Source: an uncultured Eubacteriales bacterium
Lineage (GTDB): Bacteria > Bacillota > Clostridia > Christensenellales > UBA1242
DNA length: 64,000 nucleotides
Assembly: GCA_949077035.1 (NCBI GenBank)
Contig: CARUPR010000002.1
Location: forward strand, 4,218 to 68,217
Direction of reading: 5' to 3'
Part shown: in pieces, positions 9,133-57,130 of the stretch
Numbering within the stretch: the first letter of the stretch is position 1
Layout: every line of letters begins with the position of its first letter
The notes under the pieces: model-generated
What the model was told of the DNA's origin: nothing
The model's database searches: none
Seen by the model: only the letters and a program-made list of their open reading frames with translations
Program-made: the position numbers and the translations under genes

Positions 9133-9374
9133 TAAATTCTCCTTCATAAATATATATTAATAATATTATACAACCTTATATAATAAAAGTCAAGATTTCG
9201 ACATTGTTTGTGCCTAAAATTTGAAAAATTGGAAATAAATTTTATAGAAGTAGTTTATTTGACAAGGTTTTGACAAAATCTACCCTTAAAGTTGAGATTA
9301 ATGGCAAATTTATTTTGACTTTTTATCTTTTTTTGTATAAAATATTATACTGAAAGTGTTTATAAGGAGAAATA

Positions 9375-26262: not shown

Positions 26263-26505
26263 AAAACACCTCACAAATATTTTATCACAAGCAATAAAAA
26301 AAACAAAATAAATTTGTGTGTTTATATAAATAATATTAAATATTATTATATAAATAATATACTAAGAATATATAAGTATTAAATATAATACTAAACTATT
26401 GTATACATAATATAATTTTTTAACCAACTTCTAAGCTATTTTTAATTTTAATTGAAAAAAATGTCAAAAGGGATGAGATTTTCATAAATAAGTAAAGAGG
26501 TAATT

Positions 26506-27641: not shown

Positions 27642-27775
27642 TTTAAATTCAACTTTATTTTAAAATTTATTCAACTTAATATTTGTCTTTATATTAAGCT
27701 AATTTCAACTTTAAATTTCAACTTGATATTTATTTAAATTCAACCTTAAATAAGTTTAAATTCAACTTTATTTTA
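27642..27775. repeat. Array of six TTCAAC-core repeats bracketed by a 24-bp direct repeat, with an internal 8-8-8 inverted repeat
   Basis: TTCAAC starts at 27648, 27670, 27704, 27717, 27739 and 27761, giving spacings of 22, 34, 13, 22 and 22. gtttaaattcaactttattttaaa occurs at 27641 and again at 27754. CTTAATAT-ttgtcttt-ATATTAAG lies at 27675-27698. Confidence 0.85.
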
Positions 27776-28703
27776 AATCAAAATTGTCAAAAAATTTAAG
27801 TTTTTCAGATATAAGATTAAGGAATTTTTCTCTATCTACGGCAGAGGTAAATTCGTGTTTTCCATTTTCATTAAATATCACATCGGTCTTTCCAGGCATA
27901 TCTGTTGTGTTGACATCAAGGTCGACCTTTTCTACTGTGAAAATTTCAGGGTTTGTCAAATACATATAAGCACAGGTGTCATTTGTTGCAATGCGTTTGT
28001 CAGCATATCCAGGTTCCCAATAGGTGGTATACATTTGATAAATGAAGTCACCAACTTTGTTTACTCCCTTGATTTTATTCATAACAAATTCTTCATCAAG
28101 ATGTGCTTTCAATCTGCCCATGTCAGATGGAATCATAGCAAGTGGAATTTTGCTGTTAAGAACAATTTTAAAAGCTTCAGGGTCGGTGGAAATATTGAAA
28201 GAAATATGGTTTGGATAGCCCTCAATACCATAAGGAGAGCCGCCCATAAATACAATTTTCTTGACCTTATCGGCAACATCTGGGTGTCTTAAAAGAAGTT
28301 CTCCCATGTTGGTTTGAGGCCCTAAAAGCAGGACAACAATGTCACCATCACTATCATTTAAAACTTCATACATTGCTTCTATAGCATCCAAACTATAAAG
28401 TGGTCTGTCAACAGTTTTTGGAGGGGTATATCCGCCAAGGCCTTCAACTGAATGGATAAATTCTGCATAAGGGCTGTTTCTTTGCATTGCTTTTGCGCAA
28501 CCTTTTGCAACTGGAATATCAACATTAAATTTATCAAGAATATGAAGGATGTTTCTTGTTGTTGTTTCAACTCCAACATTTCCAGAAACAGATGTGATAA
28601 GTTTGATATCAAGTTTTTCATCAAAAATAGCATAAGCGAGGCAGGCTGCATCATCAACGCCAGCGTCAGAATCAATTATTACCTTTATTTTTTCTTTGTT
28701 CAT
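27768..28703 (-). CDS. Nucleoside hydrolase (inosine/uridine-preferring family)
   Basis: KVIIDSDAGVDDAACLAYAI matches the DxDxxxDD-type signature. The start is set at ATG 28703, with AAGGA upstream. Confidence 0.85.
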   Translation of the reverse strand: MNKEKIKVIIDSDAGVDDAACLAYAIFDEKLDIKLITSVSGNVGVETTTRNILHILDKFNVDIPVAKGCAKAMQRNSPYAEFIHSVEGLGGYTPPKTVDRPLYSLDAIEAMYEVLNDSDGDIVVLLLGPQTNMGELLLRHPDVADKVKKIVFMGGSPYGIEGYPNHISFNISTDPEAFKIVLNSKIPLAMIPSDMGRLKAHLDEEFVMNKIKGVNKVGDFIYQMYTTYWEPGYADKRIATNDTCAYMYLTNPEIFTVEKVDLDVNTTDMPGKTDVIFNENGKHEFTSAVDREKFLNLISEKLKFFDNFDLK

Positions 28704-28893
28704 AAATAATATCCTTTTAAGCAATAAAAATGCAGAAGTGATTTGACAAAGATGATTTTACTTAAAAAGCAAAAATGCTAGGTGAGTTTGCTTCTGCAAT
28801 AACTACTTAAATATTATATACAAAAATTAATAAAAAAGCAATTGTTTTGATATTTTTCTTGCTATAAAATAAAGATTATGATAAAATATAATT

Positions 28894-28984
28894 GGAGACG
28901 TATCGAAGAGGTCATAACGAGACGCACTCGAAATGCGTTTGTCGGGAAACCGGCACATGGGTTCGAATCCCATCGTCTCCGCCA
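28894..28984 (+). tRNA. tRNA-Ser (anticodon CGA) with a long variable arm and encoded CCA
   Basis: Hand-folded. Acceptor GGAGACG/CGTCTCC; anticodon stem ACGCA/TGCGT with loop CTCGAAA; variable arm GTCGG-GAAA-CCGGC; T arm ATGGG-TTCGAAT-CCCAT; then G-CCA. Confidence 0.9.
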
Positions 28985-29045
28985 AAATTAAAAACTAAGA
29001 AATCTTTTTTAGAAAGAGAATTGAAAAGGATATATATGAACAAAG

Positions 29046-29764
29046 TTGTTTTGGTTACAGGTGCTTCCAGAGGAATTGGCAAAGCGACCATAATAGAATT
29101 TGCAAAAAATGGATACAATGTAGTAATAAATTATGCAAATAGCCAAAAAGCCGCCGAGCAGCTGAAGGCAGTTGTTGAAAAAGAATATAAGGTCAAAGCA
29201 CTTACTATTAAGGCAGATGTATCAAATGAAAATGAAGTCAAGCAAATGATTGAAAACATTGTTTCAGAATTTGGTAGGTTGGATGCTGTTGTCAACAATG
29301 CAGGTATTGTCTGGGATAGAAGTTTTGATGAAATTACTATAGAAGAATTTAGACGGACCCTGGATGTAAATGTAATAGGCGCTTTTATTGTTGCAAGAGA
29401 AGCAAGTAGATACATGAAAAAAGGGGCAACAATAGTAAATGTTTCTTCTACAAATGGGACTAAAACTATTTCTCCTGAATGTTTAGACTATAACATTTCT
29501 AAAATAGGACTTCAAAGTTTAACAAGAGATTTGGCTTTTCAGTTTAAGCCAAATATCAGGGTAAATGCGATTGCAATAGGTTGGGCTGACACTGATATGA
29601 ATAAAGATTTGCCAAAAGATTATATAGAATCTGAGAATGAAAAAATTTGGCTTGGGCATTTTGCAAAACCAGAACAAATTGCTGAAATAATATATTTTTT
29701 ATCAAGCGAAAAATCCAGTTATATAAATGGCGAAATTTTGACCGTTGATGGTGGATATTGTTAA
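29046..29764 (+). CDS. Short-chain dehydrogenase/reductase (FabG-like)
   Basis: VVLVTGASRGIGKA, NNAG and the Y-x-x-x-K context (YNISKIG) are present. The ORF-track start at 28892 overlaps the tRNA, so I use ATG 29046. Confidence 0.85.
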
Positions 29765-29944
29765 TTTTTTTTGTAAAATCAAAATTTTGTATTTGAGATT
29801 GAAAAATAATCATTATTAATCGAATCAGTCATAAAAAATCAAAAACAATCCGATTAAATTAAAAATCAAATCAATTAATTAAAAAAATAAAAATAAATTA
29901 AACAAAATTAAAAGAAAAAATAAGGAGTTGTGGTTTAATAAAAA

Positions 29945-30652
29945 ATGAAAAGTTTTTTTAAAGAACTATCGATATTTGAATATTTACTTCTTTTTATAAG
30001 CCCAATCGTGATTATAACAGTAGGTATTGTGTTTAAAAGTGACGCTTTAACTATTTGTTCATCTGCAATAGGGGTAGTGGGGGTATTTTTACTTTCTAAA
30101 GGAAAAATTTTAGGTCAATTTTTAGCAATTATTGTTGCAGTGCTTTATTCGATAGTCAGTTTTTATCAAGGTTTTTATGGAGAAGTAATTATTTATGTTG
30201 CGCTTATTATTCCAATGAGTATTTGGGGGATTATTGAATGGGCAAAACATAAAAATCGCGTAAGTAAAAGTGTTAAAATAAATTCTATATCATATAAAGA
30301 GTGGATAGTGGTTAGCTGCTTTGCAGCACTGATTTTCGTTGGTTTCTATTTTCTGTTAAAGGCATTAAATACAAATGAGCTTATTGTAAGCACTATTTCG
30401 GTGCTTAGTAGTATATTCGGAGAATATTTATTGGCTCGTAGAAGCAAATATGGCTTTGTTTCCTATATTTTAAATGATATAATTTTAATTGTTCTTTGGG
30501 CTATCCCTGTATTTCAAGGCAATTTGATGGTCTTAGCGATGCTTATGAATCCTATAGTAAACTTATTCAACGATATATATGGTGTTGTCAACTGGACGAG
30601 GTTGCAAAAAAGTCAAAAGCGGATGCAAAATCAAACTGAAGAATCAAAATAA
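29945..30652 (+). CDS. pnuC: Nicotinamide riboside transporter, PnuC family
   Basis: A multi-TM protein of about 235 aa. It has the Trp-containing helix IPMSIWGIIEWAKH and the LNDIILIVLW pattern typical of PnuC, and it sits in an NAD-salvage neighbourhood. Confidence 0.7.
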   Translation: MKSFFKELSIFEYLLLFISPIVIITVGIVFKSDALTICSSAIGVVGVFLLSKGKILGQFLAIIVAVLYSIVSFYQGFYGEVIIYVALIIPMSIWGIIEWAKHKNRVSKSVKINSISYKEWIVVSCFAALIFVGFYFLLKALNTNELIVSTISVLSSIFGEYLLARRSKYGFVSYILNDIILIVLWAIPVFQGNLMVLAMLMNPIVNLFNDIYGVVNWTRLQKSQKRMQNQTEESK

Positions 30653-30707
30653 AGATTTTGCATTACAACAAATTTATTAATAAAAATAAACATTCTAGGA
30701 GGGAAAA

Positions 30708-31139
30708 ATGAAAGTATTTGTATGTGCGGGAATGAGTCTTGCTAAAGTGGTTCAGACAAAGGCTTGATGGGTGAAACTCTTAAAAAATTTATTGAAACAA
30801 GCAAAAATGTTGAGTTTTTAATTCCTGAACTATTACAACTATGATGCACCAAACTTGATTAAATTAGTAGGAAAAGATAATTTCAAAGCTTTAAAGGTAA
30901 AAGGTGAAACAGGAACCTTAGAGGAATTTTTATATTGCAATGAAACATTGCGTTCGAGAGAACATAAAAGTAAAATAACATTAGTAAATATAGACGGATT
31001 TTTTAATGGTTTTTTACAACAAATAAAAACAAATATTGAGCAGGGTATGTCTAAAGATTCTGCGATTAGGTTTGACATTGTAAATGATGTAAACGAAATA
31101 AGTTTATTTCATTCAGAAAATTTAGAAAATGAATTTTAA
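30708..31139 (+). pseudogene. Decayed LOG/PpnN-family (nucleotide 5'-monophosphate nucleosidase) gene
   Basis: Three fragments lie in two frames. MKVFVCAGMS...A* ends at 30767. GLMGETLKKFIETSKNVEFLIPELLQL* runs 30761-30844 in a different frame. KGETGTLEEF...ITLVNIDGFFNGFL (30855-31139) is a degenerate PGGxGTxxE motif. The N-terminal part is also shortened. Confidence 0.55.
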
Positions 31140-31150
31140 AACAACTGAAT

Positions 31151-31181
31151 AATCACGAATATAAGTTTCGTGATTTTTTTG
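31151..31181 (+). terminator. Intrinsic terminator
   Basis: AATCACGAA tataagt TTCGTGATT tttttt. Confidence 0.8.
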
Positions 31182-31395
31182 TTTGATAAAAATAATTTAA
31201 GACAATGTAATAATAGGAATAAAGGGTGGCGGTTTTAAAAGATAATGTTATTTGATTTTCTTCTGGTTTTAATTTGATTAATTTTTATTTTTATGTTAAA
31301 ATTTAAGTGTTGAGAAATCAAATTATAAAAATGAGAAAAGACTTTAAAGTTTGGTGTGCAAATACAAATAAAGAGTATTCTTCCAAGGAGAAAGA

Positions 31396-32010
31396 ATGAA
31401 TTATAAATTTTTAAGTGTAGACTTTCAAAATGAATTTGCTGATAAAAATGGAAAATTTTTTAATGGCGGCAAAAGCATTGATTTTATACAAAAAACTCTT
31501 ATACCATTTTTACAAAAAAACAACATAAAGGTTTGTGAAATTATATCTGATTATCGTCTGCCTCGAAAAAAAAGTTCATCTGCAGGTTGCATACCTGGGG
31601 AATTTGGATTTCAATCTGCTTTGCCAGAAAATGTAAGAGATGTTTCGCCTTGGATTAAGTGCATGAATAGTCCGATATGGATTAGAAAGAATATAGGCAA
31701 AAAAGATAAGAAGGCTGGCATACCTTATCAAGATGCAAAAAAATTTAATAAATGGTTGAAAAGTCACTTTGGACAGCCAAGTGAAGATTTAACTATCATT
31801 CTTTTTGGACTAACACTTGATTGCTGCGTTTTGTCTGTTGCTCAAGAATTGTATTGGCATGGCTATAGATTTAAAATATTAATAGAAGCAACAGATGTTA
31901 TGCCTAATAAAAATCAAGAGGAAGTTAAGAGGCAGTTGGTAGGTGGCCAGGTCCTTAATCATTGGCTTAAATTTATTAAATTTGAAGATTTAATTAAAGA
32001 TTTTAAATAA
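31396..32010 (+). CDS. Isochorismatase-like cysteine hydrolase family protein
   Basis: The N-terminal SVDFQNEF resembles the VDxQNDF motif, and LFGLTLDCCVLSVAQE supplies the catalytic-Cys strand. Confidence 0.55.
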   Translation: MNYKFLSVDFQNEFADKNGKFFNGGKSIDFIQKTLIPFLQKNNIKVCEIISDYRLPRKKSSSAGCIPGEFGFQSALPENVRDVSPWIKCMNSPIWIRKNIGKKDKKAGIPYQDAKKFNKWLKSHFGQPSEDLTIILFGLTLDCCVLSVAQELYWHGYRFKILIEATDVMPNKNQEEVKRQLVGGQVLNHWLKFIKFEDLIKDFK

Positions 32011-32033
32011 AAACTCTAAATTTTGGAGGGGAA

Positions 32034-32843
32034 ATGTTAGGTGCAATTATTGGTGATTTGGCAGGCTCAGTTTATGAATTTGACCAATATAAAAAAATAA
32101 GAAAAATTGAATTGAAAAATATTATCGATGATGATGCTTTTTTCAGTGATGATACAATATTGACAATTGCAATCGCTGATGCGATTTTATGTGGAGGGGG
32201 AAATTTATATAAAAATAAGCTTAAGGAATATGCCAAAAAATATATGAATTTAATTCCGCAAAATGTCCCTTATTTTAAAAAGATGTTTTCGCCAGATTTT
32301 GAGAAATGGACTTATGGCGATTTTCAAGGCAGCAGCAATGGAAATGGTGCAATGATGAGGATATCGCCGGTGGGCGAAATGTTTTTATCAAAGGAAGAAG
32401 TTTTAAAAAATACATATCTGGCAATATCGCCTTCCCATAATAATGAAGATGCAATAAAATATGCAAGCTTGGTCGCTTTGATTATTTTTTATTCAAGCAG
32501 ATGTGGTATGAAAAGGGAAGAGATTATTAAAGAATTGAATATTGAGATAAAAAAGCCTGATATAAAAAATTTTAATTATACTTGCAATGATACAATTGAT
32601 GTCTGTTTATATTCCGTGTTTAATTCAAACAGCTTTGAAGAAAGCATAAAACTTGCCATTTCATTTGGTGGTGATACAGATACCAATGCTTGCATTGTCG
32701 GAAGCATGGCAGAGGCAATCTTTGGCATCCCAGAATATTTGAAAACATGGGCATTAGAAAAATTGCCAGCTGAATTTATTGAAATTATTGAAAGGTTTGA
32801 GCGTGCAAAAGAAGATAATGCAAAACAGGCGAAATTGAAATAA
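32034..32843 (+). CDS. ADP-ribosylglycohydrolase (ARH/DraG family)
   Basis: Contains MLGAIIGDLAGSVYEF, FSDDTILTIAIADAIL, GNGAMMRISPVG and GGDTDTNACIVGSMAEAIFG. Confidence 0.85.
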   Translation: MLGAIIGDLAGSVYEFDQYKKIRKIELKNIIDDDAFFSDDTILTIAIADAILCGGGNLYKNKLKEYAKKYMNLIPQNVPYFKKMFSPDFEKWTYGDFQGSSNGNGAMMRISPVGEMFLSKEEVLKNTYLAISPSHNNEDAIKYASLVALIIFYSSRCGMKREEIIKELNIEIKKPDIKNFNYTCNDTIDVCLYSVFNSNSFEESIKLAISFGGDTDTNACIVGSMAEAIFGIPEYLKTWALEKLPAEFIEIIERFERAKEDNAKQAKLK

Positions 32844-32902
32844 AAAATCATAATAAATTAAAATAAATCGAAAATAATATGAAAATTTAAAGGAGATAAA
32901 AC

Positions 32903-33535
32903 ATGAGAATAGGAATTGATATAGATGGAGTATTGACAGATTTGGATAGCTTTCAATTTGATTTTTTCAGTAAGTTTTGTGTTGAAAATAAAATACCATA
33001 CAATATTAAAACAAGCAAATATGACATTTCAAAATCTTTTGGCTTAGGAGATGCTGAAGAAAACAAATTTTGGGATATATATTTAGATTATTATGCTAAA
33101 CAAGAAAGGGCAAGAAGATTTGCTTCAGAAGTGATTAAGAAATTGAAAGAAGAAGGTCATGAAGTTTATATTATTACCGCAAGATGGTTGACAAACAGAG
33201 ATGATGCCTTGGGTGAAAATATGAGAAACACAGTCAAAAAATGGCTTGATGAAAACGATATAGTTTATGATAAACTGATTTTTTCAAAGGCAAAGAAAGA
33301 GAAAAAAATTGATGAAATCAGGGAAAACAATATTGATGTTATGATTGAAGACAGCCCAAGCAACATAAACGAGCTTTCAAAAATTATCCCTGTTGTATGT
33401 TTTGATGCTTCATATAATAAAAAATGCAAAGGCGAAAATATCCATAGATGTTTTAGCTGGTATGATGTTTATAATAAAATAAACCAGTTAAGCAAGCAAA
33501 AATATAATGAAGAAGAATGTATTCAAAATATTTAA
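32903..33535 (+). CDS. HAD-superfamily 5'(3')-(deoxy)ribonucleotidase-like phosphatase
   Basis: MRIGIDIDGVLTD carries the DxDG nucleophile motif. YIITAR and VMIEDSP are also present. Confidence 0.6.
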   Translation: MRIGIDIDGVLTDLDSFQFDFFSKFCVENKIPYNIKTSKYDISKSFGLGDAEENKFWDIYLDYYAKQERARRFASEVIKKLKEEGHEVYIITARWLTNRDDALGENMRNTVKKWLDENDIVYDKLIFSKAKKEKKIDEIRENNIDVMIEDSPSNINELSKIIPVVCFDASYNKKCKGENIHRCFSWYDVYNKINQLSKQKYNEEECIQNI

Positions 33536-33550
33536 AAGGAAGATAGGAAA

Positions 33551-34111
33551 GTGAATAATTTAACAAACAAAATAAGAAAGAAAAAATTTTATCAAAGAAA
33601 AACATCGGTATCAAAAAATCTTGTTAAATATAGAGATTATATCCTTGTTGAGAATATACAAAAATATGAATTTATTGGCTTTTACCCAAGAGAATTTTTT
33701 TGCTTTGATAATTTTTCATCTTTTGCTATTGTTTATAAAGGCACCAAATATCTTACCGTTGAGCATGCCTATCAAGCTATGAAATTTGTTGATACTGCAC
33801 CAGAAATAGCAAAAAAGATTGTTGAAAGCAATTCGGCGGTTGAGGCAAAGATAATAGCTCGAAGAAATGCTGATAAACAAAACAAAGACTGGACAAAGAT
33901 AAGCGCGCAAGTTATGGAAGAATTGTTGAGGGCAAAGATTGCTCAACATGAATATGTTAAGACTAAGCTTCTTGAAACAAAGGATATGCTGATTTGTGAA
34001 GATTCGCCAACTGACAGCTTTTGGGGGATAGGGCCAAACAGAGATGGCGAAAATATGCTTGGCAAGATTTGGATGAAATTGAGAGATGAACTTATTGCAT
34101 CAGAAAAATAG
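33551..34111 (+). CDS. NADAR (YbiA/DUF1768) family N-glycosidase
   Basis: FDNFSSFAIVYKGTKYLTVEHAYQAMKF...EDSPTDSFWGIG. GTG start, with a GGAAAG/AGGAAG RBS region. Confidence 0.8.
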   Translation: MNNLTNKIRKKKFYQRKTSVSKNLVKYRDYILVENIQKYEFIGFYPREFFCFDNFSSFAIVYKGTKYLTVEHAYQAMKFVDTAPEIAKKIVESNSAVEAKIIARRNADKQNKDWTKISAQVMEELLRAKIAQHEYVKTKLLETKDMLICEDSPTDSFWGIGPNRDGENMLGKIWMKLRDELIASEK

Positions 34112-34115
34112 AAAG

Positions 34116-34149
34116 AAAAAAAGTTGCTTAATTTAAAGCAACTTTTTTG
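34116..34149 (+). terminator. Intrinsic terminator after the NADAR gene
   Basis: aaaaaaa AGTTGCTT aattta AAGCAACT tttttt. Confidence 0.8.
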
Positions 34150-34330
34150 TTGTGCACCTAAATATAAACTTGGAATGTTTATTTTTTATTGGCGCACTAG
34201 ATTTAAAATTTTATTATAAAAATTTCAAATTATATGATAATATATTGAAAAACCACATAAAATTGTGATTTTTTTTAAAAATTAAGGCGAATTTAACAAA
34301 TTATTAATAAAAAATTAACAATACAAACAA

Positions 34331-34879
34331 TCAATCTTTGATATATTTTTTCAATTTTTTATTAATAATTTTTTGAAGGGTATCCATCTTTCTGTTGGTT
34401 TTTATTTTAATGACAGGGGCATTGCAGGAAGAAATTACATATTTTTGAGAGGCTTTACTTCTTATATCTAGACCAAGTTTGTTATAATTTTTGGCAATGT
34501 CTAAAAAGATAAGAAAATTTTTCTTTACCTCTTCGTCAGAATGTTCTAAACTATGTCTGCCTTTTTCATTATCCCTATTTAATATCCTTTTAATTCTGAT
34601 TTTTGTTGGGCATTTTAAATAAATTATCAAATCAATATATTCAAAGGTGATAGGGTTTGAATGGAGTGAGCCAGTTATGATTAAATTATTAGAATTTTTT
34701 ATCCTTTCAAGCAGAAGTCTATTGCTTTCCTCAATAGGTCGCATTTCTTGAAATTCAGGTATTGTTTGTTCCCACTTATAAAAGTCACTTTCTATAATGT
34801 CATAACCAAGTGATTTGCTTAAAATTTCGCCAATTGTCGAAGTTCCGCTTCCACTCGGCCCCATAATATGAATAATCAC
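34331..34879 (-). CDS. P-loop nucleoside/nucleotide kinase-like protein (adenylate-kinase fold)
   Basis: MIIHIMGPSGSGTSTIGEIL is the Walker A motif. GTG start with AAGGAG 7 nt upstream. It has its own operator-bearing promoter. Confidence 0.6.
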   Translation of the reverse strand: MIIHIMGPSGSGTSTIGEILSKSLGYDIIESDFYKWEQTIPEFQEMRPIEESNRLLLERIKNSNNLIITGSLHSNPITFEYIDLIIYLKCPTKIRIKRILNRDNEKGRHSLEHSDEEVKKNFLIFLDIAKNYNKLGLDIRSKASQKYVISSCNAPVIKIKTNRKMDTLQKIINKKLKKYIKD

Positions 34880-35031
34880 AATATTTCTCCTTTTGTTTGA
34901 ATTTTAAATAAAATATCGAAAATTTAACTAATTTTTATAAATTTTTGCGATTTTTATTAATATTTTCTCAAAATTATATTTAATTAGTCAAATTTTCGTA
35001 TTTTTTATTAATAAATATTTATTCTTTATAA

Positions 35032-35064
35032 GGTGATTTTATCACATTTTTGAGGGATAGTCAA
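35032..35064 (-). promoter_or_regulatory. Promoter plus dyad operator (site 3) upstream of the kinase gene
   Basis: The reverse strand reads TTGACT (35059-35064), a 17-nt spacer, then TAAAAT (35036-35041). The dyad TGTGATAAAATCACC (35032-35046) overlaps the -10. Confidence 0.6.
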
Positions 35065-35067
35065 TTA

Positions 35068-36546
35068 TTATTTTTCTATCTCATTTATTGTGTTTTTTGC
35101 TATATTTGCATTTCCTTTGTTGTGCTCTTCAAGCAAACGTTCTTTAAGCTCTGCAAGCTTTGGGCTAAGATTGATAGTGATAGTTTGAGCATTTGTAAGT
35201 CTTAAATTTTCCTCTTTTAAAGTATTAATTTGTTTTGCAACAAAATCTCGTTTTTGAGCAGGGGCTTTAAAATCATAGATGATTTTTCCATTTTCCATCA
35301 TCTTATGTCTGATTTTTACAGGTGTGTAATCGGTTATTGTATAAGTTTTCCAAGAAGAATTTGGGTCTTTAATTTCTATTGGACCTCTTGCAACTTTTTC
35401 ACCATAAAGTTTTAATATGTCGGTAAGAATTTTTCCATCTTTATCATAAAGGCGGACAATGTCTTTAAAGCCTGGATTTGTCACCTTTTCAATATTGTCA
35501 GAAATTTTGATTTTTGGCACTAAAGCTCCCTTTTCATTTTCAAGAGCGGTGAGTTTGTATACACCACCAAATACAGGTTCTGATTTTGCAGTAATCAAGT
35601 TTTCACCAACGCCAAATGTGTCAATAGGTGCACCTTGTTTAAGAAGGTCAGAGATAAGATATTCATCAAGAGAATTTGAAACGCAAATTTTTGTATCATA
35701 CATTCCTGCTGCATCAAACATCTTTCTTGCCTGTTTTGATAAGTATGCAAGGTCGCCACTATCAATTCTTATTCCGGCAAGTTTTTTGCCCATTGGTTCT
35801 AAGATTTCTTTTGCAACTTTGATTGCATTTTGGACTCCGCTTCCCAAAGTATCATAGGTGTCAACAAGGAAGGTTGCATTGTCAGGGAAAGAGAGGGCAT
35901 AAGCTTTGAAAGCTTCATATTCATTATCAAAACTTTGAATAAAGCTGTGAGCCATTGTGCCTAATACTGGGACGCCAAATTCCATACCAGTCATTGTGCA
36001 GGCAGTGCCTACAGCACCACCAATGTAAGCATCAAGTGCACCTTCATTGGCAGCAGATTCACCATGAGCTCTTCTTGTCCCAAATTCCATAACAGCTCTT
36101 CCTTGTGCTGAACGCACAATTCTGTTTGACTTGGTTGTGACAAGTGAAGAACGATTCATAATTGTAAGAAGTTTGGTTTCAACAATTTGAGCTTCAACAA
36201 TAGGTGCAACAACAGTCAAAATAGGTTCGTTTGGAAATGTAACAGTTCCATCTTGAACGGCATAAACATCACCGGTAAATTTTATTGTTGAAAGATAATC
36301 TAAATAATCCTCTGTAAAAAGATTGAGGCTTCTCAAATAATCTATTTCTTCCTTTTCAAATTTAAAATCTTTTAAAAATTCAACTGCAGCTTGAACATTT
36401 CCTGCAAGAGTAAATGCAGCTTTATCTGGACATCTTCTATAAAATAGGTCAAAACAAGCCTTTCTTTTTTCCAAGCCTTGATTAAAATAAGCTTGCCCCA
36501 TTGTAAGTTCGTAAAAATCAATTAACATATTATTTTTTTTGCTCAT
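35068..36546 (-). CDS. pncB: Nicotinate phosphoribosyltransferase
   Basis: Contains MLIDFYELTMGQAYF, FGTRRAHG and GTMAHSFIQ. Length is 492 aa. Confidence 0.93.
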   Translation of the reverse strand: MSKKNNMLIDFYELTMGQAYFNQGLEKRKACFDLFYRRCPDKAAFTLAGNVQAAVEFLKDFKFEKEEIDYLRSLNLFTEDYLDYLSTIKFTGDVYAVQDGTVTFPNEPILTVVAPIVEAQIVETKLLTIMNRSSLVTTKSNRIVRSAQGRAVMEFGTRRAHGESAANEGALDAYIGGAVGTACTMTGMEFGVPVLGTMAHSFIQSFDNEYEAFKAYALSFPDNATFLVDTYDTLGSGVQNAIKVAKEILEPMGKKLAGIRIDSGDLAYLSKQARKMFDAAGMYDTKICVSNSLDEYLISDLLKQGAPIDTFGVGENLITAKSEPVFGGVYKLTALENEKGALVPKIKISDNIEKVTNPGFKDIVRLYDKDGKILTDILKLYGEKVARGPIEIKDPNSSWKTYTITDYTPVKIRHKMMENGKIIYDFKAPAQKRDFVAKQINTLKEENLRLTNAQTITINLSPKLAELKERLLEEHNKGNANIAKNTINEIEK

Positions 36547-37178
36547 AATTCTATCTCCTTATCATTTTGTTTTTTAGTTTGATTTTTTATTTGTTTTTCA
36601 AATTGTCTGTTTATTTGTTTTGTTGTTTGTTTATCCAATTGTTTATTCAATCGTTTATCCATTTGTCTATTAAATTGTTTATCCAATTGCTTTTTTATAT
36701 CATCATAACCTTCAGGGATGACATATTTTAGATATTCTTTTTTATTTCTTATATCAGTGCCATGCACTGCAATTGCATCGCGGTCAATCGCAACAAATTC
36801 ACACTCAGGGAAATATAGTTCGTTTAACTGGCGATAACTTTCATCTGCATATTTTGCAGTTATTTGGTCTTTTATTACTTCCTTAAATCTTTTTGACCAT
36901 TCTTCAAGTCCTTCAGGGAAGCTTTTTAAACCACTTTCATCAAGGAAGACAAACTTTATATTGTTGTTTCCTTGATAGTGTTTTTTCAGCCACTCTAATC
37001 TCTGCATTGGTGTAAAGTATGGAAATGAAGATTTTTCACATTTTTCCTTTGAACGTTTTGGGTCTTCTGAAAGGACAATGACTGCTTTTTCACATTCATT
37101 AATTACTCTATCAATCACACTGAGATGGCCGATGTGGGGTGGTAGAAATTTGCCTACAAAGCAACCTATTTTTTTCAT
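36543..37178 (-). CDS. NMN/NaMN adenylyltransferase (NadR/NadM-type cytidylyltransferase fold) with a C-terminal tetrapeptide-repeat tail
   Basis: GKFLPPHIGHLSVI is the HxGH motif. A 4-bp overlap links it to pncB. The tail has 12 tetrads: IKKQ LDKQ FNRQ MDKR LNKQ LDKQ TTKQ INRQ FEKQ IKNQ TKKQ NDKE. Confidence 0.7.
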   Translation of the reverse strand: MKKIGCFVGKFLPPHIGHLSVIDRVINECEKAVIVLSEDPKRSKEKCEKSSFPYFTPMQRLEWLKKHYQGNNNIKFVFLDESGLKSFPEGLEEWSKRFKEVIKDQITAKYADESYRQLNELYFPECEFVAIDRDAIAVHGTDIRNKKEYLKYVIPEGYDDIKKQLDKQFNRQMDKRLNKQLDKQTTKQINRQFEKQIKNQTKKQNDKEIEL

Positions 37179-37193
37179 AAATTTCGCCTCACT

Positions 37194-38396
37194 TTATTTA
37201 TTAAAAAACTCATCATAAAGAAAGTTTTCAACTTCTTTGTCTTCATATTCTTGAAGTTTCTTTTCAAGTTGTTTGATTCTTTGTTTATAAACAAAGTTTC
37301 TAAGGCCATATTTGCTTCTCACACAAAATTTTTCATTGTCTAAAAGTTTTTCAATATCTTCAAGTTTTACTGGCACAACTTCAATTTTTTCATCTCCTTG
37401 AAGATTCTGTTTGCCTGTCATTGTGACTTCAGCTTCATATAGTTCTGCATTTTCATCAGTCAATCCCAAAGAAGAATATGCTGCAGTTTCTGTCCTCTTG
37501 ATGTGTTTTACTTTTGCTCCGATTTCTTCATCAAGCTCTCTTATTGCACTTGTCATGCTATCTTCGCCTTCATCCACAAGTCCTGCAGGTATTCCATAAA
37601 CATAATCACCGATGGCACGTTTAAATTCTTTAATAAGATATACAACCATTGAACCATTTACATAAGAATATGGTATCATGTGCACTGCATCTGGTTTTAG
37701 GGTAGGTTGCACGATTTCAGGAAGTTTGCGTCTTGTAACCATTTCGTATTTAATTAAATTGTTTCCGTCTTGATAAGTCACTTCAAACATATTTAAAAAT
37801 TTTCTGTCAGTAAGTTTTTTGATGCTTATTGGTTTTAAAGTATTCATATAGGTAATCTCAACTCCAAGTTCTTCAAGTTCTTTAAGTGCCTGACTATTTA
37901 CTTTGTCAGCTTCATGATTTGGTGCATTAAAGGTATCAACACTGTTTTCAGAGATAGAAATCTTTGTCCCAATTTTATTTTCAGCAAAATATTTTACCAA
38001 ACTTTGAGTAAGTGAACTTACGCATATATCTGTGCAGCATCCAGTGATTTCTATATTGTCAAATTTGTTATTCTCTAAAATTGCCTTCATCATAATTGTA
38101 TTAAATCCATTTGTTGTATTTTTGTTTATGACAAGCATATCCTTTTCATATGGTTTAAGCTGGTCTATAAGCTCACACTCGCGGCTACCTTTTATGCAGT
38201 GGGGTGGGAATAACTTAAATTCCTCGTCATTTTCATCATGAGTATCTTTAAAGGCAATTATCATGTCACCATTTTGCTTTGCCTTTTCAATCTTATGGAC
38301 TATTGATGGAACAATTGAATTAATACGGCTGTCTGCCAATGCTCCTTCATTGATGAATCCATTTACCATGTCAACTACTATTAATAAATTTTTCAT
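37194..38396 (-). CDS. pncA: Bifunctional nicotinamidase (PncA-like) / Nudix ADP-ribose pyrophosphatase fusion
   Basis: The N-terminal half has LLIVVDMVNGF, FPPHCIKGSRE and ITGCCTDICV. The C-terminal half has the Nudix box GIPAGLVDEGEDSMTSAIRELDEEIG and the NudF-like segment SSLGLTDENAELYEAEV. Confidence 0.8.
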   Translation of the reverse strand: MKNLLIVVDMVNGFINEGALADSRINSIVPSIVHKIEKAKQNGDMIIAFKDTHDENDEEFKLFPPHCIKGSRECELIDQLKPYEKDMLVINKNTTNGFNTIMMKAILENNKFDNIEITGCCTDICVSSLTQSLVKYFAENKIGTKISISENSVDTFNAPNHEADKVNSQALKELEELGVEITYMNTLKPISIKKLTDRKFLNMFEVTYQDGNNLIKYEMVTRRKLPEIVQPTLKPDAVHMIPYSYVNGSMVVYLIKEFKRAIGDYVYGIPAGLVDEGEDSMTSAIRELDEEIGAKVKHIKRTETAAYSSLGLTDENAELYEAEVTMTGKQNLQGDEKIEVVPVKLEDIEKLLDNEKFCVRSKYGLRNFVYKQRIKQLEKKLQEYEDKEVENFLYDEFFNK

Positions 38397-38436
38397 TTTT
38401 TCCTCCTTAAAATATGTATATGTCTGATATCATCAA

Positions 38437-38469
38437 TATGATAATATCACATTAAAAATAATTTGTCAA
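38437..38469 (-). promoter_or_regulatory. Promoter plus dyad operator (site 1) of the pncA-nudix/NMNAT/pncB operon
   Basis: The reverse strand reads TTGACA (38464-38469), a 17-nt spacer, then TATTAT (38441-38446). The dyad TGTGATATTATCATA (38437-38451) overlaps the -10. Confidence 0.65.
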
Positions 38470-38487
38470 CTATTTTTTTAAAATTTC

Positions 38488-38520
38488 TTGACAAAATATT
38501 ATCATTGTGATAATATCAAT
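38488..38520 (+). promoter_or_regulatory. Promoter plus dyad operator (site 2) of nadE-nrtR
   Basis: TTGACA (38488-38493), a 17-nt spacer, then TAATAT (38511-38516). The dyad TGTGATAATATCAAT (38506-38520) overlaps the -10. Confidence 0.65.
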
Positions 38521-38537
38521 GGTGAAAGGAGATTATT

Positions 38538-39302
38538 ATGGATAAAAAAGAGATAGAAAAAATCAAATTATGGATAAGCGACTATATAAAAAACGCTCAT
38601 GCAAATGGTGTAATTCTTGGAATGAGCGGGGGAAAGGATAGTCTTATCACAGCAAAACTTTGTGTTGATGCACTTGGCAAGGATAAAGTTTTGGGCGTCA
38701 TTATGCCAAATGGCGAAATGAAGGATTGTCAAGTAGCCATTGAAAGCTGTCAATTATTAGGAATAAGATATTATAATATAAATATTAATAATCTATATAA
38801 AGATATGCTTGACAATATTTCACCAATATTAAAAAATGAAGATAAACCTCTCAGCACAGTAACAACATACAATGTCCCTCCAAGACTTAGAATGGTTTCA
38901 TTATATGCCATTGCAGGAAGCCTTGGTTATCTTGTTGCAAACACTTCAAATCTTTCAGAAGCTATGGTTGGTTATACCACTAAATGGGGCGATAATGTTG
39001 GCGACTTTGCTGTTCTTGCAAATTATACAAAAGATGAAGTGTGTCAGCTTGGTCTTTTGCTTGGTCTTCCAGAAAATCTTGTAAATAAGGTCCCAGATGA
39101 TGGTTTGACAGGAAAGACAGATGAAGATAAACTAGGCTTCAGTTATCAAGAACTTGATAATCTTATAAGAAATGGTAAAAAGGGTGAAAAATATGACCTT
39201 ATCTCAAAAATGCATAGACTTTCAGAGCATAAAAGGGTGGGGACAGCAAAATTCCCAAATGATACAAAAAATTATTTCTATGAAGATGAAATTGAATTGT
39301 AA
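38538..39302 (+). CDS. nadE: Ammonia-dependent NAD+ synthetase
   Basis: GMSGGKDSLITAKL is the SGGxDS PP-loop. Length is about 254 aa, and GYTTKWGD is present. Confidence 0.93.
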   Translation: MDKKEIEKIKLWISDYIKNAHANGVILGMSGGKDSLITAKLCVDALGKDKVLGVIMPNGEMKDCQVAIESCQLLGIRYYNININNLYKDMLDNISPILKNEDKPLSTVTTYNVPPRLRMVSLYAIAGSLGYLVANTSNLSEAMVGYTTKWGDNVGDFAVLANYTKDEVCQLGLLLGLPENLVNKVPDDGLTGKTDEDKLGFSYQELDNLIRNGKKGEKYDLISKMHRLSEHKRVGTAKFPNDTKNYFYEDEIEL

Positions 39303-39307
39303 AACAA

Positions 39308-39359
39308 TTGATTAACTTTTGATTAATTATTGATTATCTTTTGATTAATTATTGATTCA
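39308..39359 (+). repeat. Five TTGATTA repeats at an exact 11-bp period
   Basis: TTGATT(A/C) starts at 39308, 39319, 39330, 39341 and 39352, between nadE and nrtR. Confidence 0.9.
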
Positions 39360-39464
39360 ATTATTAATATTTAAAATATTGTTTAGAACATTATTTAAAA
39401 TTGATTTGATTTTTATTAATCAAAGGTTATAATTTATACTGCTAATAAAAATTTGAGGTGAAAG

Positions 39465-40331
39465 ATGAAAATTTCAAGTGAAGAAAAACAATTCTTAGAA
39501 CTATATTCAGATAGTCATTATCAAAAACCTTCGGTGACTGTTGATGCGGTTGTTTTAAGAATGATAGACAAAGAAAGTGATAATTATAGAAAACTGCCAG
39601 AGAAAAAACTGCAGGTGTTTTTGACATACAGAAAATATCCACCTTTTGTAAATCATTATGCGGTTGTAGGCACTTTTATTGATTTAAACAATACTCTTGA
39701 AGAAACTTTGGATTTATGTGTCAAAAACAAAATATCTTTGGATAACTTTTATAAAGAACAACTCTTTACCTTTGGTGATAAACAACGTGACCCAAGAACA
39801 AGAGTTTTATCAGTCAGCTATATGCTTCTGACACATAATCAAGAGCTTAACAATGGCAAATGGTTTGATTTTGATATTCAAGAAAGGGAAATTTTATCTG
39901 AAATATCTCAAGAAGGGTATCATGTTGAAAAAGAAATCACTATCACTCTTTCAAATGGCGAGGAGGTATTGAATAATAAACTCAAATTATCAATAAAAAG
40001 CAGTGAGCTTAAAATGGAAAAGAAACTTGAGATTATCTCTTCAGACATCGCTTTTGACCATATCAAACTTATCTATTTTGCACTTGATAGATTGAAAAAT
40101 AAACTTGAATGGACAGATATTGCCTTCAATCTTCTTCCTAAAAAGTTTACCTTGACAGAACTTAAAAATTGCTATGAAGAAATTTTGGGCACAAAACTTT
40201 TGGATGCCAATTTCAGAAGAAAGACTGCCGACCTTGTATGTCCTCTCAATGAGTATACATCTGATAAAGGTCACAGACCATCACAACTTTTTAAGCATAA
40301 TCCAAATTGGGACAGAAGATTGAATATATAA
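39465..40331 (+). CDS. nrtR: NrtR-like (Nudix-related) transcriptional regulator of NAD metabolism
   Basis: The N-terminal Nudix-like fold (PSVTVDAVVL...) lacks a clean catalytic box. The C-terminal winged-helix signature reads LLPKKFTLTELKNCYEEILGTKLLDANFRRK. Confidence 0.7.
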   Translation: MKISSEEKQFLELYSDSHYQKPSVTVDAVVLRMIDKESDNYRKLPEKKLQVFLTYRKYPPFVNHYAVVGTFIDLNNTLEETLDLCVKNKISLDNFYKEQLFTFGDKQRDPRTRVLSVSYMLLTHNQELNNGKWFDFDIQEREILSEISQEGYHVEKEITITLSNGEEVLNNKLKLSIKSSELKMEKKLEIISSDIAFDHIKLIYFALDRLKNKLEWTDIAFNLLPKKFTLTELKNCYEEILGTKLLDANFRRKTADLVCPLNEYTSDKGHRPSQLFKHNPNWDRRLNI

Positions 40332-40422: not shown

Positions 40423-40456
40423 AAAAAAACCTCCCATAAAAGGGAGGCTTTTTTTA
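40423..40456 (+). terminator. Intrinsic terminator after nrtR
   Basis: aaaaaaa CCTCCC ataaaa GGGAGG cttttttt. Confidence 0.85.
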
Positions 40457-41125: not shown

Positions 41126-41512
41126 TTAAATCAGTGATATAAGCACTTTGAGAGCAGCTGCTGCAGGACCTTGAATTTGTGAATTGCGTATCAGCGATTC
41201 ATCAACTTTACCCCATGCATTTGGAATCTTCTTAAGAATTGCTGGCAGGGCAAGATTGATAAATAATACAAGCACCAAAAGACAGGCAACACCAATTAAT
41301 GTGTTTCTCAATCTGAAAAGTGCACCCTTTCTTTTTTCCTCATTTTCGCTTTTGGCAAGATTGACACCTAAAACAATTGCATAAACAGAGCCAGCACCGC
41401 CTACTACTGCCAAAATTGCATATAAAATACTTGGCAAGATTTCATAGACTTCATTCAGCCAGGCATAATTGCCAAGCCATCTATTTACTTCAGCAAGAAG
41501 AAATTGCAGCAT
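41126..41512 (-). CDS. Small two-TM membrane protein, paralog A (128 aa)
   Basis: The start is set at ATG 41512 behind AAGGAGTGAGG. The core AILAVVGGAGSVYAIVLGVNLAKSENEEKRKG...IGVACLLVLVLFINLALPAILK aligns with the neighbouring gene. Confidence 0.7.
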   Translation of the reverse strand: MLQFLLAEVNRWLGNYAWLNEVYEILPSILYAILAVVGGAGSVYAIVLGVNLAKSENEEKRKGALFRLRNTLIGVACLLVLVLFINLALPAILKKIPNAWGKVDESLIRNSQIQGPAAAALKVLISLI

Positions 41513-41611
41513 ATCCTCACTCCTTTTAAGATATTTTATCACAATTTTTTCTTTTATGCAATCAAATTATAAGAAATTCTTATTAATATTGAAATTTATT
41601 GAATCAAACGA

Positions 41612-41642
41612 CAAAAAAAATCACATCAATTAAGATGTGATT
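41612..41642 (-). terminator. Intrinsic terminator after paralog B
   Basis: The reverse strand reads ATCACATC ttaatt GATGTGAT tttttttt. Confidence 0.8.
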
Positions 41643-41650
41643 TTATCTAG

Positions 41651-42064
41651 TTACGCTTTTAAAAGTGAAAGAATAGGTTTGATAATGCTGGTGCCACCTT
41701 CAGGTTTTTTATCAGGAACATCTAAAGCATTTGGGTCAACAAAGGCTGAAACTAAAGCAGGTAAAGCAACGTTGAATATTACAATTAAAGCGATTGTCAC
41801 ACCAATTGCAATAAACACAGTGATAAGGTGTTTTTTTGCATCGTCACGCTTGCTTTGGTCTTCTGCACGAGCAAGTTGAACTCCTAAATAGATTGCATAA
41901 ATTGCACCAATTGCACCAACAACACCAAGAACTACCCAAAGGACAGAACTTATTATACTAAATGTTTGTGAAAGAAGTTTTCTTGTGTTGTCATCACCTT
42001 GAAAAAATTTATTAAAATAAGCTGCCCAACTAGTTACAATTTGTTTAGCAAGTAAAAGATTCAT
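41651..42064 (-). CDS. Small two-TM membrane protein, paralog B (137 aa)
   Basis: The start is set at ATG 42064 behind AGGAGGG. Core: VVLGVVGAIGAIYAIYLGVQLARAEDQSKRDD...IAIGVTIALIVIFNVALPALVS. Confidence 0.7.
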   Translation of the reverse strand: MNLLLAKQIVTSWAAYFNKFFQGDDNTRKLLSQTFSIISSVLWVVLGVVGAIGAIYAIYLGVQLARAEDQSKRDDAKKHLITVFIAIGVTIALIVIFNVALPALVSAFVDPNALDVPDKKPEGGTSIIKPILSLLKA

Positions 42065-42390
42065 TTTTCCCTCCTTTTTATTTAAAAGCGTTTTGCTTTT
42101 CAATTACAATCTCATATTAACATATTTAATTTAAAAAAGTCCAACGATTTTAAAAGGTTTTTTTATTTTTTTTTAATATTATATATTTATCCTTATCTTT
42201 TTATACAAAATGTGCAAAAATATGCCTTAAAAAGAAATTTTTGGGGCAATAGCAGTAAGTTTTTCTACTTGCAAAGCAATTTTTAAGGACATTTTTAATT
42301 TGGTTCTGGCTTCATTTTTATGAAAAAAAAGATAAAAACAACCCCAAAATGAGGCTGCTTTTATCTCTCTTAAAATTATGTGGCAAATGA

Positions 42391-49840: not shown

Positions 49841-51487
<1,647 letters not shown>

Positions 51488-56983: not shown

Positions 56984-57130
56984 CAAAAAAACAAAATATA
57001 TAATAAAGTAAATAAAAAGATAAATTAAAAATTATTTTAAAAGGTGCAACTTATTGCACTTTTTTTAATAAGAGATATTGACTATAATAAAAAAATGATG
57101 TATAATATATTGTATATAGCGGAGGAAATT

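Follow-up and report, generated by a model that had tools for sequence, protein, structure and literature searches.

A probable NrtR-type NAD-salvage regulon beside variable accessory genes in an uncultured Eubacteriales bacterium

We analysed a 64,000-nucleotide stretch of DNA from an uncultured Eubacteriales bacterium (assembly GCA_949077035.1, contig CARUPR010000002.1; the whole stretch is hereafter the window), in which a first-pass annotation had described a run of genes as one unusually complete 12.5-kb island for the salvage of NAD and ADP-ribose. Our analysis gives good grounds for a different division, in which the segment at 34.3-40.3 kb is a regulon for NAD salvage, conserved among relatives and of the known NrtR type, and variable, lineage-specific accessory genes lie beside it. 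The earlier gene list itself was sound, each gene being present on the strand and in the family given when families were assigned by Pfam and NCBIfam profile scans and catalytic motifs were read in the protein sequences. The single 12.5 kb unit did not survive the comparison with related loci: only six genes are conserved together and share a candidate operator, and the accessory genes fall into separate transcription units without it. What sets the core apart is a fusion of the nicotinamidase PncA with a Nudix domain, a NadR-type nicotinamide-nucleotide adenylyltransferase (NMNAT) without its kinase domain, and an atypical P-loop protein.

The genes of the core are as follows.

34331-34879, minus strand: small P-loop protein (PF13238), which ends the NAD operon in relatives
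35068-36546, minus strand: PncB, nicotinate phosphoribosyltransferase (NF006695, 617 bits against a cut-off of 469)
36543-37178, minus strand: NMNAT, NadR-type nicotinamide-nucleotide adenylyltransferase without the RNK kinase domain (TIGR01526, positions 1-152)
37194-38396, minus strand: PncA-Nudix fusion, first gene of the leftward operon (PF00857, 89 bits; PF00293, 34 bits)
38538-39302, plus strand: NadE, single-domain NAD synthetase family (PF02540, 193 bits; SGGKDS PP-loop motif)
39465-40331, plus strand: NrtR-family regulator (PF21906, 66 bits against a cut-off of 27, residues 220-277)

The gene content of 87 loci anchored on PncA was compared with the window by tblastn, using all window proteins as queries. 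Four of these loci came from a scan of a genome collection with the PncA-Nudix fusion as query, three from contigs carrying a homologue of the P-loop protein, and the remaining 80, all with PncA, from a metagenome scan in which the query was an alignment of the fusion. The full arrangement, NrtR and NadE divergent from PncA-Nudix, NMNAT, PncB and the P-loop gene, is common to L012 (the closest relative of the window among the compared loci), L014, L017, L018 and L019. The leftward genes from PncA-Nudix to the P-loop gene are also found in L013, which is clipped at the contig end, and the core order can be followed in L015 until its contig ends inside PncB. L020 and L021 keep the order without the P-loop gene, as do L022 and L024, where in addition PncA and Nudix are two adjoining, separate genes. 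Because the same gene order recurs in these 11 other loci, clustering of the core is not due to chance; that of the accessory genes is not reproduced in this way. A homologue of NrtR was detected in 41 of the 87 loci; in the window the regulator gene has NadE and the PncA operon as neighbours, and its linkage to NAD genes is also seen in related loci.

The sequences that would control these genes are conserved as well. The predicted elements of the core are listed here.

38397-38537: divergent control region, the 141-bp spacer between PncA-Nudix and NadE, with two back-to-back promoters
38469-38441, minus strand: leftward promoter, TTGACA-17-TATTAT, with a TG-extended -10 box
38488-38516, plus strand: rightward promoter, TTGACA-17-TAATAT, with a TG-extended -10 box
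38438-38450 and 38507-38519: palindromes TGATAATATCA, 11-13 bp, lying over both -10 boxes
38430-38444 and 38499-38513: flanking half-sites 3 bp off each palindrome, giving TATCA-N3-TGATA
35064-35036, minus strand: promoter of the P-loop gene, TTGACT-17-TAAAAT
35033-35045: third palindrome, GTGATTTTATCAC, overlapping the -10 box of this promoter
39406-39433: promoter-like site of nrtR itself
40423-40454: terminator of nrtR

In its 13-mer form the palindrome reads GTGATA-W-TATCAC, and the best three matches to GTGATAWWATCAC within the region each overlap a TG-extended -10 box. The layout with a palindrome over each -10 box was found in 12 of 12 loci (the window and the 11 relatives), and about 95 bp of the control region is almost invariant across five loci whose proteins are only 54-84% identical. 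The spacer and promoter before the P-loop gene are specific to the window; in relatives this gene lies directly behind PncB. From a scan for promoters and terminators and a reading of the intergenic regions, five transcription units are predicted: PnuC with a LOG-family remnant; an accessory operon encoding an isochorismatase-like hydrolase, an ADP-ribosylglycohydrolase (ARH), an NT5C-type phosphatase and a NADAR-domain protein; the P-loop gene alone; PncA-Nudix, NMNAT and PncB; and NadE followed by nrtR. No copy of the shared operator was detected within 1-2 mismatches upstream of PnuC or of the accessory operon, and neither is preceded by an NAD riboswitch (nadA or pnuC motif) at gathering score or at E<=1. 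NrtR is the predicted repressor of the three operator-bearing promoters, and both its binding and its effector are likewise predictions.

The catalytic motifs of PncA, Nudix, NMNAT and NadE are intact, like those of the accessory ARH, HAD phosphatase, NADAR and nucleoside hydrolase described below. In the fusion, PncA occupies residues 1 to about 190 and retains the D9/K92/C125 triad and the D51/H53/H66 metal site, and a Nudix domain of the ADP-sugar pyrophosphatase type (residues ~235-360), matched by the NudE and YffH/AdpP models, carries a canonical box (G272-x5-E-x7-RELDEEIGA). PncB also scores 518 bits against a cut-off of 297 with TIGR01513 and contains three NAPRTase Pfam domains. The NMNAT has its closest solved structures in NadR (8x7f and 1lw7), shares 31% identity with the corresponding domain in the full-length NadR of L087, contains the motifs PPHIGH and HGTDIR, and is scored at only 18-24 bits by NadD models. 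At the 3' end of its gene, 12/24-bp tandem repeats (36566-36697) encode a K/Q-rich tail of ~38 aa (DKQFNRQMDKRLNKQ...) that is specific to the window, being found neither in relatives (172-175 aa) nor in L012 DNA. Among solved relatives of NadE the P. horikoshii enzyme (2e18, 146 bits) and that of F. tularensis (3fiu, 130 bits) rank ahead of the B. subtilis enzyme (89 bits), with the E. coli enzyme likewise well behind the first two. The single-domain archaeal NadE of M. jannaschii was tested experimentally and is a genuine NAD synthetase (PMC3376133).

In the regulator, a C-terminal winged helix follows a Nudix-like part, and both domains align with AraR (5bs6), 2fml, Shewanella NrtR (3gz5) and NadQ (7q91); the Nudix-like part, at residues 46-127, can be aligned with the Nudix domains of 5bs6, 2fml and 3gz8. 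Its own Nudix box is degenerate (GTFIDLNNTLEETLDLCVKNKISL, without the residues of E-x7-REUxEE), as expected for the NrtR family. The spacer between NadE and nrtR (39303-39357) is filled by five copies of an 11-bp TTGATTAAnnn repeat (22-bp period, 96% match); in L012 the spacer measures only ~58 bp.

We hypothesize that the core recycles NAD as follows, with the substrate specificities of all the enzymes being those that we infer here. PncA would deamidate nicotinamide, PncB would convert nicotinate and phosphoribosyl pyrophosphate into nicotinate mononucleotide (NaMN), and NadE together with the NadR-type adenylyltransferase would complete NAD, either through nicotinate adenine dinucleotide (NaMN to NaAD to NAD) or, in a manner resembling Francisella, through nicotinamide mononucleotide (NaMN to NMN to NAD). 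The fused Nudix domain most likely cleaves ADP-ribose into AMP and ribose-5-phosphate, in which case a single PncA-Nudix polypeptide would salvage both cleavage products of NAD and at the same time clear the expected inducer of NrtR. NrtR would repress the three promoters through the TGATAATATCA-type palindromes over the -10 boxes and release them when ADP-ribose rises. Nicotinamide riboside (NR) or nicotinate riboside taken up by the cell would most likely enter the pathway through the P-loop protein, acting as a ribonucleoside kinase. The accessory genes could plausibly contribute NR uptake and free ADP-ribose or ribose that is bound in conjugates and nucleotides, without being a fixed part of the system. 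The first-pass annotation had called the Preiss-Handler route complete; PncA, PncB and NadE are indeed encoded, and a NadR-type enzyme stands in the place of a NadD-type NaMN adenylyltransferase.

The P-loop protein has the fold of adenylate and nucleoside monophosphate (NMP) kinases (AlphaFold2 pLDDT 93.7), yet its Walker A motif, GPSGSGTST, has no lysine. The PRK06217 model scores it at 111 bits, below the cut-off of that model, and its LID region is uridine kinase-like. Members of the wider PRK06217-like family have the Walker A motif GASGSG[T/V/A/S/C][ST]T, and some are fused to Nudix, HD, His_Phos_1, GNAT or GrpB domains, partners that are nucleotide-flavoured and not specific to NAD. The gene follows PncB in L012, L013, L014, L017, L018 and L019, and this conserved position in the operon, together with the operator in the window, argues for an NAD-related role. 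Our best guess from sequence is a ribonucleoside kinase, a candidate for phosphorylation of NR or of nicotinate riboside (NaR). The fuller proposal, of an unrecognised enzyme of pyridine-nucleotide salvage and likeliest an NR/NaR kinase that replaces the RNK domain of NadR, we regard as tentative and rather doubtful. Homology to the RNK domain of NadR or to NRK1 was considered and is not supported by hhalign or Foldseek. The earlier proposal of a PnuC route, which had been made on the proviso that the kinase acts on NR, holds for the transporter (TIGR01528), but the kinase shows no specific likeness to RNK or NRK1 and has no Walker lysine.

Several observations weigh against the regulon as we read it, or against the roles that we assign to its members. 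The nearest structures to the P-loop protein in Foldseek are Fap7/AK6, UMP/CMP kinase and adenylate kinases, and neither RNK nor NRK1 is among its top 50 matches. Alignment by hhalign with the RNK domain of NadR has a probability of 6%, and that with human NRK1 (sequence checked against PDB 2qg6), at 52%, covers only residues 1-39, that is, the P-loop and an ESDFYKW/QDDFFKP motif. Across the wider family the Walker lysine is kept by 10 of 150 representatives and replaced in ~93%, and its absence from the window protein counts against the kinase role assigned here. NadR-type adenylyltransferases prefer NMN, and with this preference to be expected here, the link from PncB to NAD requires an unproven specificity: passage from NaMN to NAD needs a tolerant NMNAT, a NadE that serves as NMN synthetase, or a NadD elsewhere in the genome. 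The palindrome has the core TGATA-N-TATCA (GT-N9-AC in the 13-mer), as against the 21-bp operator with a GT-N7-AC core of most NrtR groups, and since it overlaps an extended -10 box, some of its conservation may be due simply to promoter function. Operator motifs do diverge in some NrtR groups (PMC2330246). Finally, an ARH gene adjoins nrtR in five loci and ARH-NT5C is kept by the core in L012, which argues that ARH, at least, is more than a chance neighbour.

The accessory part (27.8-34.1 kb) is a lineage-specific and partly decaying neighbourhood downstream of a tRNA gene, and contains the following features.

27768-28703, minus strand: IU-type ribonucleoside hydrolase (IUNH), RihC-like (PF01156, 201 bits)
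28894-28984, plus strand: tRNA-Ser(CGA), left boundary of the segment in which the window and L012 differ
29036-29764, plus strand: short-chain dehydrogenase (SDR), FabG-like, 242 aa (PF13561, 210 bits)
29945-30652, plus strand: PnuC, nicotinamide riboside transporter (TIGR01528, 87 bits against a cut-off of 42.45; PF04973)
30709-31139, plus strand: LOG-family pseudogene, three pieces in three frames, internal part lost
31151-31175: terminator-like hairpin ending the PnuC/LOG unit
31274-31302: promoter-like site of the accessory operon
31396-32010, plus strand: isochorismatase-like cysteine hydrolase, 204 aa, first gene of the accessory operon
32034-32843, plus strand: ARH, short 269-aa ADP-ribosylglycohydrolase (PF03747, 104 bits against a cut-off of 26)
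32903-33535, plus strand: NT5C, HAD phosphatase of the 5'(3')-nucleotidase type (PF06941, 45 bits)
33551-34111, plus strand: NADAR-domain N-glycosidase, last gene of the accessory operon (PF08719, 113 bits against a cut-off of 35)
34117-34148: terminator of the accessory operon

DNA homology between the window and L012 extends through IUNH and the tRNA gene to 29015, resumes at 32238 (codon 68 of ARH), and breaks again at 33489-34330. It follows from these gaps that L012 is without the SDR, PnuC, LOG, isochorismatase-like and NADAR genes and has other genes instead. The ARH gene of L012 (14541-15137, minus strand) is truncated at its 5' end, its first 68 codons, including the catalytic DD motif, being gone, and the replaced segment beside it encodes an S41-like peptidase and a 158-aa protein. 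None of the 87 PncA loci has NADAR, the isochorismatase-like gene or LOG by tblastn; NT5C occurs in 2/87, and PnuC in 4/87, where it adjoins full-length NadR in L064, L071 and L087. Homologues of the window ARH (~65% identical; Clostridia, Christensenellales) occur in varied, unrelated contexts, as do those of the isochorismatase-like protein, and the operon of isochorismatase-like gene, ARH, NT5C and NADAR was not found among the contexts of close homologues of its isochorismatase-like and ARH members. The comparison with relatives, which the earlier annotation had put forward as a check, thus separates a core kept together from accessory genes that are mostly missing, replaced or truncated in L012.

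A different ARH subfamily, 28-40% identical to the window ARH, lies directly next to nrtR in L014, L022, L058, L064 and L085, and because of this adjacency in five other loci we consider ADP-ribose processing to be tied to NAD salvage. The coupling of ADP-ribose processing to NAD resynthesis that the first-pass annotation had proposed is borne out in this form, by the PncA-Nudix fusion as well as by these ARH genes. PnuC and ARH are in keeping with NAD salvage and are found again with regulons of this kind, which is not the case for NADAR, the isochorismatase-like gene, LOG or the SDR. As a side observation, long same-strand NAD operons occur in metagenomic Firmicutes (L058, 5269-13073; L085, 10001-18246; L064, 2218-11165; L087, 10001-20470), combining PncA, PncB, NadE, a radical-SAM protein, NadD, Prs, Nudix, PnuC-NadR, ARH, CinA, NAD kinase and NrtR. 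L058 and L085 also encode an unrelated 190-aa P-loop protein with no Pfam match.

Regarding the individual products, ARH, NADAR and the HAD phosphatase fall into the families first proposed for them, just as the P-loop protein matches PF13238. The window ARH, whose closest solved relatives are ARH3, Lmo0067 and MJ1187, is probably active, judging by the presence of both metal-binding sets among its motifs (GDLAGS; SDDT, residues 38-41; GNGAMMR; GGDTDT, residues 212-217). NT5C has the motifs DIDGV, IITAR and EDS, and its copy in L012, likewise next to ARH, is 70% identical. NADAR has the motifs EHAYQAMKF and FWGIG; it scores 109 bits against a cut-off of 73.7 with TIGR02464 (YbiA/riboflavin N-glycosidase) and 89 bits against a cut-off of 240 with an anti-phage NADAR model. 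With its closest affinity to the YbiA-like type, it has an uncertain place in ADP-ribose processing, YbiA-like housekeeping NADARs having been set apart from the DNA ADP-ribosylglycohydrolases (PMC11257639). The three ADP-ribose-cleaving enzymes counted originally, then, all have intact motifs, and NADAR scores as YbiA-like.

The isochorismatase-like protein scores only 24 bits with PF00857, below the cut-off, but the fold is supported by its predicted structure (AlphaFold2 pLDDT 95.6) and by Foldseek matches to isochorismatase-like hydrolases and nicotinamidases (TM 0.55-0.65). D9, K98 and C143/144 are present, and the D-x-H metal motif of nicotinamidases reads D-Y-R. Its family is found mainly in CPR bacteria and DPANN archaea, and copies 67-73% identical occur in gut-type metagenomes. 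One 67% copy (L100) lies by a serine recombinase and a terminase small subunit, a hint of horizontal spread. IUNH belongs to the syntenic flank (84% identical in L012), has the DxDxxxDD motif, scores 227 bits with the RihC model, under its cut-off, and might convert nicotinamide riboside into nicotinamide. A degenerate 12-bp tandem array (TTTAAATTCAAC, ~11 copies) occupies 27642-27770, between the convergent glycosyltransferase and nucleoside hydrolase genes. The start of the SDR gene is at 29036 and not at 28892; the gene has no evident role in NAD salvage. In the LOG pseudogene the first piece (MKVFVCAG...) halts at 30766 after 19 codons and is followed by a GLMGE...ELLQL piece and by an open reading frame of 94 aa (30855-31139) that matches PF03641 positions 61-122. 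We also considered a tRNA-linked mobile island and rejected it: there is no recombinase among the scanned open reading frames, no att-like copy of tRNA-Ser, and the GC content is uniform (0.29-0.36 by gene, against 0.317 for the whole window).

It remains to weigh other readings of the same neighbourhood. If the whole 12.5 kb were one unit, ARH and NADAR would strip ADP-ribose from conjugates, Nudix and NT5C would degrade it, IUNH, PnuC and the kinase would handle ribosides, and the Preiss-Handler enzymes would resynthesize NAD in an auxotroph. Adjacency of the genes, most of which look active, speaks for this, as do the five loci with ARH beside nrtR, the long operons of other Firmicutes that include ARH, PnuC-NadR and NrtR, the pairing of nrtR with draG in Streptomyces (PMC2330246), and a locus (L007) with ARH, NT5C and IUNH within 10 kb. 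We nevertheless think it unlikely, given that the promoters of PnuC and the accessory operon are without operator or NAD riboswitch, that L012 dispenses with so many of the genes and has an ARH truncated beyond its DD motif, that three of them are found at none of the 87 loci and LOG is a pseudogene, that the window ARH is of another subfamily than the nrtR-linked ones, and that NADAR is YbiA-like. A general salvage or damage-control function of the accessory genes, with no specific tie to NAD, IUNH, NT5C, LOG and the P-loop kinase acting on ordinary nucleosides and nucleotides, NADAR acting on riboflavin intermediates, and adjacency that is coincidental in a compact genome, is in our judgement very unlikely. 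It would suit a RihC-like IUNH, a deoxyribonucleotidase-type HAD phosphatase, a NADAR that passes the riboflavin N-glycosidase model, a P-loop fold that matches NMP kinases, and homologues of ARH and the isochorismatase-like protein that elsewhere sit among housekeeping genes. It fits poorly with a P-loop gene that lies in the NAD operon at seven loci and bears an operator in the window, with a NAD-specific PnuC, and with the recurrence of ARH beside nrtR.

The accessory operon might instead be protective cargo, in which ARH and NADAR are orphan, antitoxin-like erasers of the ADP-ribosylation of protein or DNA by toxins of competitors or by phage-related systems, and the adjacency of the NAD module is incidental or useful only to replenish NAD. 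Stand-alone NADARs outside the YbiA type are guanine-specific DNA ADP-ribosylglycohydrolases that have been suggested to protect bacteria (PMC11257639). The window NADAR has weak matches to PADLOC PDC-M42C and to the anti-phage NADAR model, which would suit this reading, as would a segment that starts from a tRNA gene and is not the same in close relatives. A 68% homologue of the window ARH (L003, 1-10798) is encoded near a 2824-aa ART-PolyVal/PBECR5 protein and Mrr, a setting that resembles a conflict system, and the L100 neighbours of the isochorismatase-like copy point the same way. However, the NADAR scores above the YbiA-type cut-off but below the anti-phage one, its identity to phage NADARs does not exceed 42%, and the window contains no ADP-ribosyltransferase, integrase or att repeat and is uniform in GC. 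Among known defence systems in PADLOC, only weak single-protein matches were found, of NADAR to PDC-M42C (45 bits) and of the P-loop protein to VakA (28 bits), with none for ARH, NT5C or the isochorismatase-like protein, and we give the idea of protective cargo very little credence. The reading that best accommodates these observations is still that of a conserved NrtR-type core with a variable neighbourhood.

The wider setting is that of a gut Clostridia genome. Near-identical sequence was found in DNA assemblies from mouse-gut samples, the related loci carry the labels uncultured Clostridia or Eubacteriales, and one of them (L019) encodes the Clostridia marker SCIFF and its radical SAM maturase. 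The sequencing runs in which the sequence occurs contain only about 10% of its words, and the RNA runs among the candidates were polyA libraries of the host. The window is AT-rich (GC about 0.32) and includes housekeeping genes for SecA, NusG, L1, an L10 leader, YchF, RecD2, QueH and signal peptidase. Elsewhere in the window we noted two giant open reading frames on the minus strand (17794-26274, 2826 aa, and 4063-9147, 1694 aa) with no Pfam match at 1e-5, the first of which is kept in L012 (76% over the visible part); a BclA-like protein with collagen triple-helix repeats (49841-51478, minus strand), whose gene accounts for a local jump in GC to 0.47; an ankyrin-repeat protein (57044-58909, plus strand); and a BspA-type leucine-rich-repeat protein (16565-17617, minus strand). 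The NAD module is likewise flanked by large leucine-rich-repeat proteins in L014, L017 and L018. Two small membrane proteins (41126-42103, minus strand), both kept in L012, have sub-threshold matches to the type IV secretion system pilin family. These matches and the CPR/DPANN distribution of the isochorismatase-like family had raised the possibility of a CPR host, which was rejected in view of the labels of the relatives, SCIFF in L019, and the BclA-like protein and L10 leader of the window.

If the regulon is as we propose, a clade of gut Clostridia recycles NAD with unusual parts under a classical NrtR switch, nicotinamide and ADP-ribose, the two fragments of cleaved NAD, are both processed by one polypeptide, and a NadR-type adenylyltransferase works without its kinase half. 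With no NadD among its genes, the cluster would also serve to test which of the two final steps of NAD synthesis comes first. Should the kinase reading of the P-loop protein also be right, it would, with the PncA-Nudix fusion and a possible conversion of NaMN to NMN by NadE, define a distinct salvage variant and give a candidate function to a large uncharacterised family of P-loop proteins. Salvage of niacin and NR by gut anaerobes bears on cross-feeding of vitamin B3 in the gut. For annotation, a six-gene module next to a variable neighbourhood means that the accessory genes are not to be labelled as a single system.

The closest known counterparts are the NrtR regulons, for which the 2008 account of the family described arrangements of pncA-pncB-nadD-nadE, pnuC-nadR and nrtR-draG, the last reported for Streptomyces (PMC2330246). 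The statement of the first-pass annotation that the combination had not been described as one unit is therefore half right, since NrtR regulons with pncA, pncB and nadE, with pnuC-nadR and with nrtR-draG were on record in 2008 (PMC2330246). NrtR operators overlap promoters, and ADP-ribose relieves binding as an anti-repressor (Rodionov et al. 2008, PMC2330246). As in those regulons, the window has a regulator with Nudix-like and winged-helix domains by pncA, pncB and nadE, divergent transcription with palindromes on the promoters, and a tie to ADP-ribose metabolism through a Nudix enzyme and ARH/draG (PMC2330246). Unlike them, it has a PncA fused to a Nudix domain with a canonical box, a short NadR-type NMNAT in place of NadD or NadM, and a lysine-less P-loop protein in the operon, and its candidate operator (TGATAATATCA; GTGATA-N-TATCAC) is without the GT-N7-AC core of most NrtR regulons.

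In the PnuC-NadR salvage of NR in Haemophilus and Streptococcus, full-length NadR comprises an NMNAT and an RNK domain. The window shares with it PnuC and the NadR-type NMNAT domain, but this NMNAT is without RNK, the P-loop protein is not homologous to RNK, and PnuC is in another transcription unit and missing in close relatives. A second point of comparison is the Francisella route, which runs from PncB through NaMN, the NMN synthetase NadE*, NMN and NadM to NAD (Sorci et al. 2009, as related in PMC3376133). As there, no NadD is present in the window cluster, and an NMN-type adenylyltransferase accompanies a short NadE of one domain, to which the F. tularensis enzyme is second-closest among solved structures; the adenylyltransferase is, however, of the NadR type and not NadM, and the best relative of NadE is archaeal.

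The PncA-Nudix fusion recalls NadM-Nudix, a bifunctional NMNAT and ADP-ribose pyrophosphatase of Synechocystis and Francisella (Huang et al. 2008, as cited in PMC3376133), in that a Nudix domain of the ADP-ribose pyrophosphatase type is joined to an enzyme of NAD salvage, and differs from it in that the partner is PncA and not an adenylyltransferase. The accessory ARH and NADAR share folds and catalytic motifs with the erasers DarG1, phage AdfN, DraG and ARH3 and with the N-glycosidases of the YbiA type. Unlike those erasers, they have no partner ADP-ribosyltransferase in the window, the NADAR is YbiA-like, and the ARH is of a short 269-aa form that is common in gut Clostridia.

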